Virus record (IMG/VR): IMGVR_UViG_3300005340_000040
Location: 3,863 to 67,862 of that record
Length of the DNA: 64,000 nt
From: a virus
Reading direction: 5' to 3' (one strand)
The position numbers and the translations under genes are program-made. Shown piece after piece: positions 31,741 through 32,261 of this stretch; position 1 is the first letter of the stretch; each line of letters begins with the position of its first letter. Under the pieces are notes generated by a model, which was given only the letters and a program-made list of their open reading frames with translations, did no database searches and had not been told where the DNA came from.

Positions 31741-32114
31741 GATCCTTTTTCCTGCGGTCGACCGTGTGCCTGTTGCGGCCTTACCATGGCCATGACGTCC
31801 ACCAGCAGCGCTTCGACCGTCGCCGTCCTGGTCGACGGGGGCGCATCGCTGTGCTCGTTCAGCAGCGCTCGCAGCCTGCCGACGTCGAGCTGGTTGTCGG
31901 GTGAGCATCGTTCGATCCTTCCGTACGTGACGCCTCGCAGCAGCCCGTAGGCCACTAGGTGGTGGCGGGCATGGACCCCCAACCGTCGCTTGGCCTCCTG
32001 CAATCGGGCCCTACGAACGCCTGCGCACCGTGCGCCCAACGTAGCGAGCGAAACACCGGCCATGGTGAACCCACGGACCTTGGCGCGAAGCACCTGCAAA
32101 CCAATTGAGTACAT
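31737..32114 (-). CDS. Basic hypothetical protein (ARHHLVAYGLLRG..Y.RIE motif)
   Basis: Strong SD GAGGAGG before ATG 32114; coupled to the Pth2-like gene. Confidence 0.8.
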   Translation of the reverse strand: MYSIGLQVLRAKVRGFTMAGVSLATLGARCAGVRRARLQEAKRRLGVHARHHLVAYGLLRGVTYGRIERCSPDNQLDVGRLRALLNEHSDAPPSTRTATVEALLVDVMAMVRPQQAHGRPQEKGS

Positions 32115-32261
32115 GCTAGACCTCCTCATCAACGCTCAAAGCAACCACACCGTCGATCGGTAGCCTGCTCGAGGAGGTCCACGCACGCGCGCTTCAAGCG
32201 CATTGCATTCAGAGGAATCCGGACATGGTCGTACGGTAACTATCGACGCTCATGCGTACAA
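32112..32261 (-). promoter_or_regulatory. Promoter, leaderless uORF (MSGFL*) and SD-sequestering hairpin (translational attenuator)
   Basis: TTGTAC-N17-TACCGT, ATG 6 nt later at 32226; TGGACCTCCTCG (32181-32170) pairs with TGAGGAGGTCTA (32128-32117). Confidence 0.7.

Follow-up and report, generated by a model that had tools for sequence, protein, structure and literature searches.

Four-base decoding in nature has so far been regarded as an oddity, met with in mutant suppressors, a few organelles and synthetic biology. A 2016 review (PMC5009743) records phage tRNAs whose loops have non-standard sizes, which are not known to mediate frameshifting; suppressor tRNAs of recoded phages are linked, in the accessible part of the corresponding preprint (bioRxiv 10.1101/2021.08.26.457843), to stop-codon recoding. 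For leaders of the SecM type, the available part of PMC10951233 gives a model in which a sequestered ribosome-binding site is exposed by a stalled ribosome, and the available part of PMC12992588 presents RAPP and RGPP as robust arrest motifs refractory to EF-P. The present analysis concerns a leader on the minus strand of a 64-kb stretch of phage DNA (hereafter, the window; positions 3,863-67,862 of the 67,862-base virus record IMGVR_UViG_3300005340_000040), located 5' of the gene p125 and of a gene for a Pth2-type peptidyl-tRNA hydrolase, together with a tRNA carrying an 8-nt anticodon loop that is encoded on the same strand 1.15 kb 3' of the leader and matches the leader's stop, a pairing absent from a first-pass annotation of this DNA, which likewise did not recognise RGPP as an established arrest motif.

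Comparison of this leader with those of related Pth2 loci makes it likely that it operates at the level of translation as a sensor of the suppressor-type tRNA of its own phage, in which suppression or quadruplet decoding of a stop would bring the ribosome to a stall at an Arg-Gly-Pro-Pro (RGPP) motif and thereby free the Shine-Dalgarno sequence (SD) and start codon of p125. We also lean, if only slightly, toward a broader proposition, namely that phages use four-base decoding, with a conserved class of NYUUCAAN-loop tRNAs reading UGAA and being monitored by an arrest-peptide leader within a wider family of leaders that sense UAG, UAA or UGA suppressors and gate p125-Pth2.

Leader and tRNA in the window

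The first-pass annotation had proposed a leaderless upstream open reading frame (uORF) with two independent routes to open an SD-blocking hairpin, and every sequence feature that it listed is indeed found on the minus strand where it had been placed. A promoter-like arrangement (32233..32261) consists of TTGTAC (32261-32256), a 17-nt spacer and TACCGT (32238-32233), the latter ending 6 nt 5' of the ATG (32226-32224) of a short uORF, ATG TCC GGA TTC CTC TGA (MSGFL; 32209-32226). The end of this uORF forms the stop-containing four-base word UGAA (32211-32208), referred to below as the gate, and is followed by ATG CAA TGC GCT TGA A, with a second UGAA in the same frame (32196-32193). Translation of the first UGAA as one four-base step yields MSGFLXCNALEARVRGPPRAGYRSTVWLL*, in which the R-G-P-P codons CGT GGA CCT CCT (32172..32183) lie in the +1 frame and would serve both as a predicted arrest motif and as the core of an anti-SD arm; the +1 frame closes at TGA 32138-32136. 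A TAG (32118-32116) lies 1 nt before the p125 ATG at 32114.

The proposed SD-blocking hairpin forms in the minimum-free-energy (MFE) fold of 32232-32095 (-53.7 kcal/mol, z -2.48, with 1 of 200 shuffles as good). Its 5' arm (32171..32188), comprising anti-SD and anti-start, joins in a long-range helix with a 3' arm (32111..32127) in which the SD GAGGAGG (32127-32121) and the p125 ATG (32114-32112) are both paired: 32181-32171 pairs with 32127-32117 (the SD plus UCUA) and 32188-32183 with 32116-32111, AUG included. The stem over GAGGAGG is thus there as annotated, and its length has to be revised from 12 bp to roughly 17 bp, since the helix extends over the AUG. Enclosed by this helix is an inner stem-loop (32139..32170), through which +1-frame translation would run as far as the TGA; a terminator-like match at 32162-32148 coincides with this inner hairpin and was set aside. 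Ahead of the helix, a small hairpin GCGC-UUGAA-GCGC (32189..32201) holds the second uORF-frame UGAA in its loop and begins 7 nt past the first UGAA, that is, at the 11th base counted from its U. The 15 nt 5' of the gate (AUGUCCGGAUUCCUC) contain no GGAGG-like run, and at the gate site itself, CUC UGA A, a Leu tRNA shifted by +1 would face UCU, with which it cannot pair. An Rfam search returned no family over the leader, and a scan of the leader for E. coli-type sigma-70 promoters returned 0 sites.

The tRNA (30895..30968, minus strand; called by ARAGORN and by the Rfam tRNA model at 44.7 bits, E 2e-8) begins 9 nt past the stop of the gene p135. Its anticodon loop, AUUUCAAC, has 8 nt and is closed by a regular 5-bp stem (GUCCG/CGGAU), so that the molecule shows the cloverleaf, enlarged loop and regular stem of a frameshift-suppressor-type tRNA. 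The four-base anticodon given by ARAGORN, UUCA, is complementary to UGAA, and both uORF-frame stops of the leader are UGAA, matching this tRNA encoded in cis. An origin from tRNA-Glu was considered and rejected, the nearest tRNAs in the genome being Thr(UGU) and Arg(UCU) at 74% identity. A 14-nt anticodon-arm pattern searched against viral contigs gave 114 matches, none overlapped by a tRNA, and these were discarded as chance matches.

Within the 67.9-kb genome, TGAA followed by 0-14 sense codons and R[GA]PP occurs only at the leader locus, the genome as a whole holding 443 TGAA sites and 27 R[GA]PP words in six frames. By a rough estimate, chance alone would supply about one such pattern per genome; it is not significant alone in a single genome, and its reality therefore rests on comparison with relatives.

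Gate and frame among relatives

The neighbouring cytidylyltransferase-NUDIX protein, used as a query, retrieved ten viral contigs (L116-L125), in nine of which the synteny around the leader is conserved, and their aligned Pth2 proteins in turn led to 74 viral-contig and 80 metagenome loci. Altogether 155 Pth2 loci were compared, the window included. Pth2 is 58-81% identical in relatives. Of the 155 rows, 90 have a stop-gated R[GAS]PP; most of the 65 without it stem from contigs cut off too soon, the rest being a group of CUA-tRNA loci described below. Clustering of the leaders at 90% identity reduced the 90 rows to 65 distinct clusters, each containing R[GAS]PP. Among the 74 viral-contig loci, 62 carry a CUA, UUA, UCA or odd-loop tRNA (12 have none), and these suppressor-type tRNAs lie nearly always downstream of Pth2.

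The type of gate and the frame of the motif track the anticodon and loop size of the neighbouring tRNA in 52 of the 53 clusters with UUCA, CUA, UUA or UCA tRNAs. All 24 clusters with an 8-nt NYUUCAAN loop have an ATG-initiated uORF ending in UGAA, followed by 5-12 sense codons and by RGPP in the +1 frame, which gives strong comparative support to the first of the two annotated routes, whereby +1 entry at UGAA would lead to the reading of RGPP and the opening of the hairpin. Among the 24 clusters with a CUA tRNA (7-nt loop), 23 have a TAG in frame 0 located 1-8 (once 16) codons before RGPP or RAPP, the remaining one (L260) being doubtful. The four clusters with a UUA tRNA (7-nt loop) are likewise gated in frame 0, by TAA in three and TAG in one, and the single cluster with a UCA tRNA (7-nt loop; L259) has a TGA in frame 0. 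A frame-0 stop thus precedes R-(G/A/S)-P-P in 28 of the 29 clusters with 7-nt-loop tRNAs, cognate by our count. Two further clusters (L217 and L291) have other odd loops, and ten, whose contigs lack a tRNA, could not be scored. Two of the 24 leaders in the +1 group, L302 and L307, were assigned by hand since their script labels differed: their UGAA paths have 6- and 5-codon uORFs, respectively, with L302 also having a TAG without a uORF eight codons upstream in the RGPP frame and L307 an earlier TAGA without a uORF. On the evidence of these alignments, the leader stop follows the anticodon and the frame of the predicted arrest motif follows the loop size.

Several further features of the leaders are shared. 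The R-x-P-P codons pair with the SD downstream in nearly all of the MFE folds of 30 relatives, and a consensus helix was obtained. In all 29 of the relatives' leaders examined for it, a p125 homologue with the motif HLxAYGLLRGVPYxxIE comes next. In 23 of the 24 leaders of the +1 group, the uORF frame meets a second stop, TGA, TAA or TAG, on the stretch from UGAA to RGPP. The second annotated route (triplet readthrough of both UGAs up to the TAG, with translational coupling to the next ATG) is not conserved and finds no support; from its placement, the second stop looks like a barrier that keeps frame-0 readers off the anti-SD. A GC-rich hairpin with a stem of at least 4 bp starts 4-8 nt past UGAA in 19 of the 24 (8.2 expected from shuffles), and compensatory stems (GCGG/CCGC, GCGCC/GGCGC, GCACG/CGUGC) are observed at this hairpin.

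The uORFs provide an additional line of comparison. A conserved uORF peptide, ..YPQM(I/L)LRE., is common to L200, which is gated by TAG in frame 0, and to L204, L219 and L289, which are gated by UGAA with RGPP in the +1 frame; since homologous uORFs thus occur under both gates, one leader lineage has changed its gate type, and its tRNA along with it. Among the +1 leaders the spacer before the motif measures 5, 6, 7, 8, 10 or 12 codons, and among the frame-0 leaders 1-8 or 16, and these repeated changes by whole codons, together with the shared uORF under different gates, would argue against pure inheritance of the pattern. The uORF peptides fall mainly into two types, M-Y-x-Q-N/C-Y-P-Q-M-(I/L)-(L/F)-(R/L)-E.. 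(common to L200, L204, L219, L243 and L289) and M-x-G-F-L, to which the window belongs; as nascent chains, these peptides may modulate termination at the gate.

With respect to initiation, the uORF start is preceded, at a distance of 6-7 nt, by a TANNNT hexamer in eight of the 15 viral-contig leaders of the +1 group, the window among them, and a TANNNA hexamer occupies this place in five more; the uORF start is GTG in L212 and ATG in the other hexamer-bearing leaders. In many relatives CCTGTACA or a like sequence lies ~17 nt further 5' of the hexamer, and no SD precedes the short uORF in any of the 15. The actinobacterial -10 rule and the common occurrence of leaderless mRNAs fit this hexamer spacing. 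Judged by these sequences, the uORF mRNA is probably leaderless, and the leaderless start proposed at first is plausible on the same grounds, hexamers being found at the same spacing in relatives.

Proposed mechanism and competing explanations

The sequence anatomy, the fold, the tRNA and the covariation of leader stop and frame with tRNA type are observed; from these we infer a promoter, quadruplet decoding, stalling, an ON direction with active tRNA and a dependence of p125 and Pth2 on suppressor activity. In the proposed course of events, the probably leaderless five-codon uORF (MSGFL) would end at UGA-A; upon release-factor termination there, ribosomes would never reach the anti-SD, and the p125 SD and AUG would stay locked in the long-range helix. 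Should the UUCA tRNA decode UGAA as a four-base codon, the ribosome would enter the +1 frame and translate eight more codons to Arg-Gly-Pro-Pro, stalling with CCU (32177-32175) in the P site and holding 32188-32171. The SD, ~44 nt downstream of the stall, would be left free, permitting translation of p125 and of the coupled Pth2, and the second uORF-frame stop in the loop of the small hairpin would halt frame-0 readthrough. Leaders sensing suppressors in this manner may constitute a switch, feed-forward or bistable, that sets how the infected cell decodes.

A different account, in which the leader senses release-factor activity (termination at UGA, UAG or UAA in the infected cell), weak termination permits spontaneous readthrough or frameshifting and the adjacent tRNA matters only indirectly, we regard as unlikely. 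Any stop-gated readout depends on competition between release factor and tRNA, the stop types TAG, TAA and TGA map onto the specificities of release factors RF1 and RF2, and prfB offers a precedent for sensing RF2 at UGA. The codons before UGA in the +1 group, however, are CUC, UUG, UUC, GCC, UAC and GGC, none of them slippery, so that a spontaneous +1 shift is not favoured, and in all but one of the scorable clusters the gate and frame follow the anticodon and loop of the tRNA. The analogy with the CUU-UGA frameshift of prfB drawn in the first-pass annotation accordingly fails on mechanism, the leader having no slippery site.

The direction of regulation, itself an inference, could also be the reverse, with mRNA cleavage, Rho termination or a ribosome queue lowering p125 and Pth2 expression at high suppressor activity; arrested ribosomes can recruit rescue and decay factors, and the downstream hydrolase could belong to a homeostatic loop. 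This we consider more improbable still, since the arrest codons are the exact strand that masks the SD and AUG, the geometry of activating leaders such as SecM-secA (as described in the available part of PMC10951233), and the SD, ~44 nt past the A site, lies outside the stalled ribosome.

More remote again is an RNA-only reading, a hairpin that sequesters the SD and answers temperature or some factor, with uORF, UGAA and RGPP being incidental. It draws on the rough chance expectation given above and on the fact that an anti-SD such as GGACCUCC necessarily reads G-P-P in one of three frames, which had led the first-pass annotation to caution that RGPP might be incidental. That caution is answered by the relatives. 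The R-G-P-P motif is kept at the codon level in homologous leaders, where CGT, CGA, CGC, CGG, AGA and AGG all occur at the Arg position and Gly (four codons), Ala (three) or Ser (two) at the second position; the use of all six Arg codons, varying only synonymously, places the peptide under selection. Moreover, the frame is kept despite indels in the 24 +1 and 28 frame-0 leaders, and both the frame and the stop type match the tRNA. That the suppressed product itself (here a 30-residue peptide; in several leaders 20-40 residues), made only with a working tRNA, is the functional molecule and the hairpin secondary is just as improbable: conservation is limited to gate, RxPP motif and pairing and does not extend to sequence or length past RxPP, the stop coming 0 to >20 codons later (immediately in L216, L234 and L269).

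A number of observations weigh against sensing of the phage's own suppressor-type tRNA by four-base decoding. UGAA is the normal stop of approximately one third of the TGA-ending genes in this genome, p135 included, and their products would be lengthened if UGAA were decoded efficiently; UGAA decoding does not appear to be needed by any gene in the genome. A scan of all 443 TGAA sites by a crude codon-usage screen found no two coding frames joined at a TGAA, the best split-gene candidate having its own SD and ATG; since open reading frame coverage is already high under the standard code, opening each stop in turn is uninformative. The nascent chain at the predicted stall would have only 17 residues and no release mechanism of the Sec/YidC type. 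Some frame-0 leaders have their stop only 1-3 codons before RGPP, where a terminating ribosome would already cover the anti-SD. The relatives are also not independent: the Pth2 tree is so poorly resolved that independent gate switches cannot be counted from it, its supported branches forcing only one +1 origin.

Two exceptional loci belong here as well. The L291 tRNA (L291:3043-3120) has a loop that parses as 8 nt (CGUUUAAU, with a 4-bp stem), and in its leader RGPP follows TAA-A in frame 0; loop size alone therefore does not dictate four-base reading. L217 (leader near L217:3440-3520) has a UGAA/+1 leader, yet the only odd tRNA on this contig, estimated to be 39% complete and carrying three other tRNAs, has the 8-nt loop GGUUAUGU (L217:5315-5388). 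This loop would match AUAA, and in the L217 uORF, ATG TCG ATA A.., AUAA comprises codon 3 plus one base; read as four bases, AUAA would also enter the RGPP frame, and the single case may represent a second quadruplet pair.

Further loci with unusual tRNAs or gates were noted. ARAGORN assigned anticodons of non-standard length, with four bases (gaaa, ctta) or two (cg), at L250:5171-5244, L260:4445-4520 and L224:1652-1729; these loops also parse as 8 nt, and a normal CUA tRNA is located near those in L250 and L260. In the CUA-tRNA jumbo-phage loci L225, L231, L237, L241, L245, L246 and L247, the ~300-620 nt upstream of pth2 contain no RxPP. Instead, a uORF of 2-7 codons ends in a TAG that shares its frame with the start codon (ATG) of the following gene, a few codons on; this gene encodes a protein with a FHDCGKPYC motif, and the uORF could be a simpler readthrough gate.

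Genomic context and comparison with known systems

In the window (GC ~0.645), four features lie tightly packed on the minus strand 3' of the leader: p125 (31737..32114), the first gene under the leader; the Pth2 gene (31381..31740; PF01981, E 6e-8; phrog_1866), whose GTG start overlaps the p125 stop (GTGA); p135 (30977..31384), 3' of Pth2 and not conserved in the relatives examined; and the tRNA described above. Searches with p125 returned no Pfam or PHROG match and no PDB sequence match. Its AF2 model (pLDDT 91.8) predicts a small, helical protein, for which Foldseek found nothing below E 0.8 and VIA-align only generic helical hairpins (Z 8.3 or less). Language-model similarity of p125 to GerE/LuxR or sigma region-4 helix-turn-helix (HTH) proteins reached 0.86, under the 0.9 threshold, and this weak lead, not backed by the fold searches, was dropped; if true, the leader would gate a transcription factor. 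Neither tblastn with p125 against a phage database nor p125 alone as a query against viral contigs found a relative, the 29 homologues being those located downstream of leaders. Megablast of the locus against the phage database gave no match, and a distant blastn only a 72-nt piece of the macro-domain gene in three Streptomyces phages, without synteny.

The genes 5' of the leader encode UDP-glucose dehydrogenase-like, cytidylyltransferase-NUDIX and macro-domain proteins. The cytidylyltransferase-NUDIX (NadR-like) and macro-domain genes (32293-33839, minus strand) are directly 5' of the leader and syntenic in relatives, and the pair may take part in NAD or ADP-ribose metabolism. A large sugar-modification cluster (26147-29657 and 33893-43697, minus strand) comprises genes for UDP-glucose dehydrogenase-like, DegT-type aminotransferase, dehydratase/epimerase and GNAT acetyltransferase proteins as well as several group-1 glycosyltransferases. 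On the plus strand, ARAGORN identified an array of 30 tRNA genes (1315-9119) with most amino acids represented, an unusually large number for a phage record of 68 kb. The phage derives from rhizosphere metagenomes. One rhizosphere metatranscriptome run yielded contigs over 31189-31367 and 31896-32144, which constitute weak evidence of expression of the locus, DNA carry-over being possible and transcript starts not resolvable in such contigs. A G>A variant at 32231 (plus strand), in the contig of one DNA run (32121-32327), falls between the -10-like hexamer and the uORF ATG and leaves the uORF, hairpins and RGPP all unchanged.

Of the known systems, the RAPP-type arrest peptides (ApdA, ApdP and ApcA) and SecM (RAGP) are closest: as described in PMC10951233 and PMC12992588, they too carry R-(A/G)-P-P, placed terminally or nearly so in a small upstream ORF, with the ribosome-binding site of the next gene held in a stem that the stall opens, as is predicted here. 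The differences are substantial. Judged from the sequence, the motif in the phage leaders sits behind a stop or in the +1 frame and would be read only after suppression or four-base decoding. The chain ahead of it (14 residues in the window, MSGFL-X-CNALEARV) is too short for a targeting signal, and the leader, having neither a signal or transmembrane segment nor a pulling-force release, lacks the monitoring-substrate character of those peptides. It resides in a phage, the genes that it would regulate are p125 and Pth2 rather than Sec/YidC components, and its input would be tRNA activity; the available part of PMC12992588 makes no mention of phage, stop codons or frameshifting. Full-text literature searches, supplementary files aside, turned up no stop- or quadruplet-gated arrest leader and no Pth2-linked suppressor-tRNA sensor.

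Frameshift-suppressor tRNAs (sufD, sufB2, sufJ) and engineered UAGN decoders have in common with the tRNA of the window an 8-nt loop and a four-base anticodon complementary to the target. Unlike these, the present tRNA is natural, conserved in many phage lineages, directed to a stop-containing quadruplet and accompanied by a cis element. The locus thus presents a conserved natural pair of tRNA and target, in which the decoding mode can be told from the frame of a known arrest motif; if this is true, the leaders are built-in reporters of how each odd phage tRNA decodes. They make testable whether enlarged-loop phage tRNAs read four bases, what purpose phage suppressor tRNAs have, why these tRNAs travel with Pth2, and whether RGPP arrest can be driven by a non-export input. 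They also offer a compact portable part, turning a gene on only with a given suppressor or quadruplet tRNA active, which would be useful for genetic-code expansion. Recoded phages likewise encode CUA, UUA and UCA tRNAs; in contrast to them, the genes of this genome give no sign of in-frame UGAA, and the leader would instead report suppressor activity.

With prfB (RF2), the leader shares an early in-frame UGA as a sensor and +1 passage as the productive outcome. It differs in lacking the slippery CUU-U and the SD-like stimulator just 5' of it, in that its +1 frame encodes an arrest motif rather than the regulated protein, and in having an 8-nt-loop tRNA encoded beside it. Finally, in trp and his attenuators, ermC-type leaders and T-boxes, a short leader likewise reports tRNA status and remodels the RNA. 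Attenuators sense the lack of charged tRNA at sense codons and T-boxes bind tRNA directly, whereas in the leaders described here a working suppressor tRNA would be read at a stop or quadruplet, with a peptide stall as the output.

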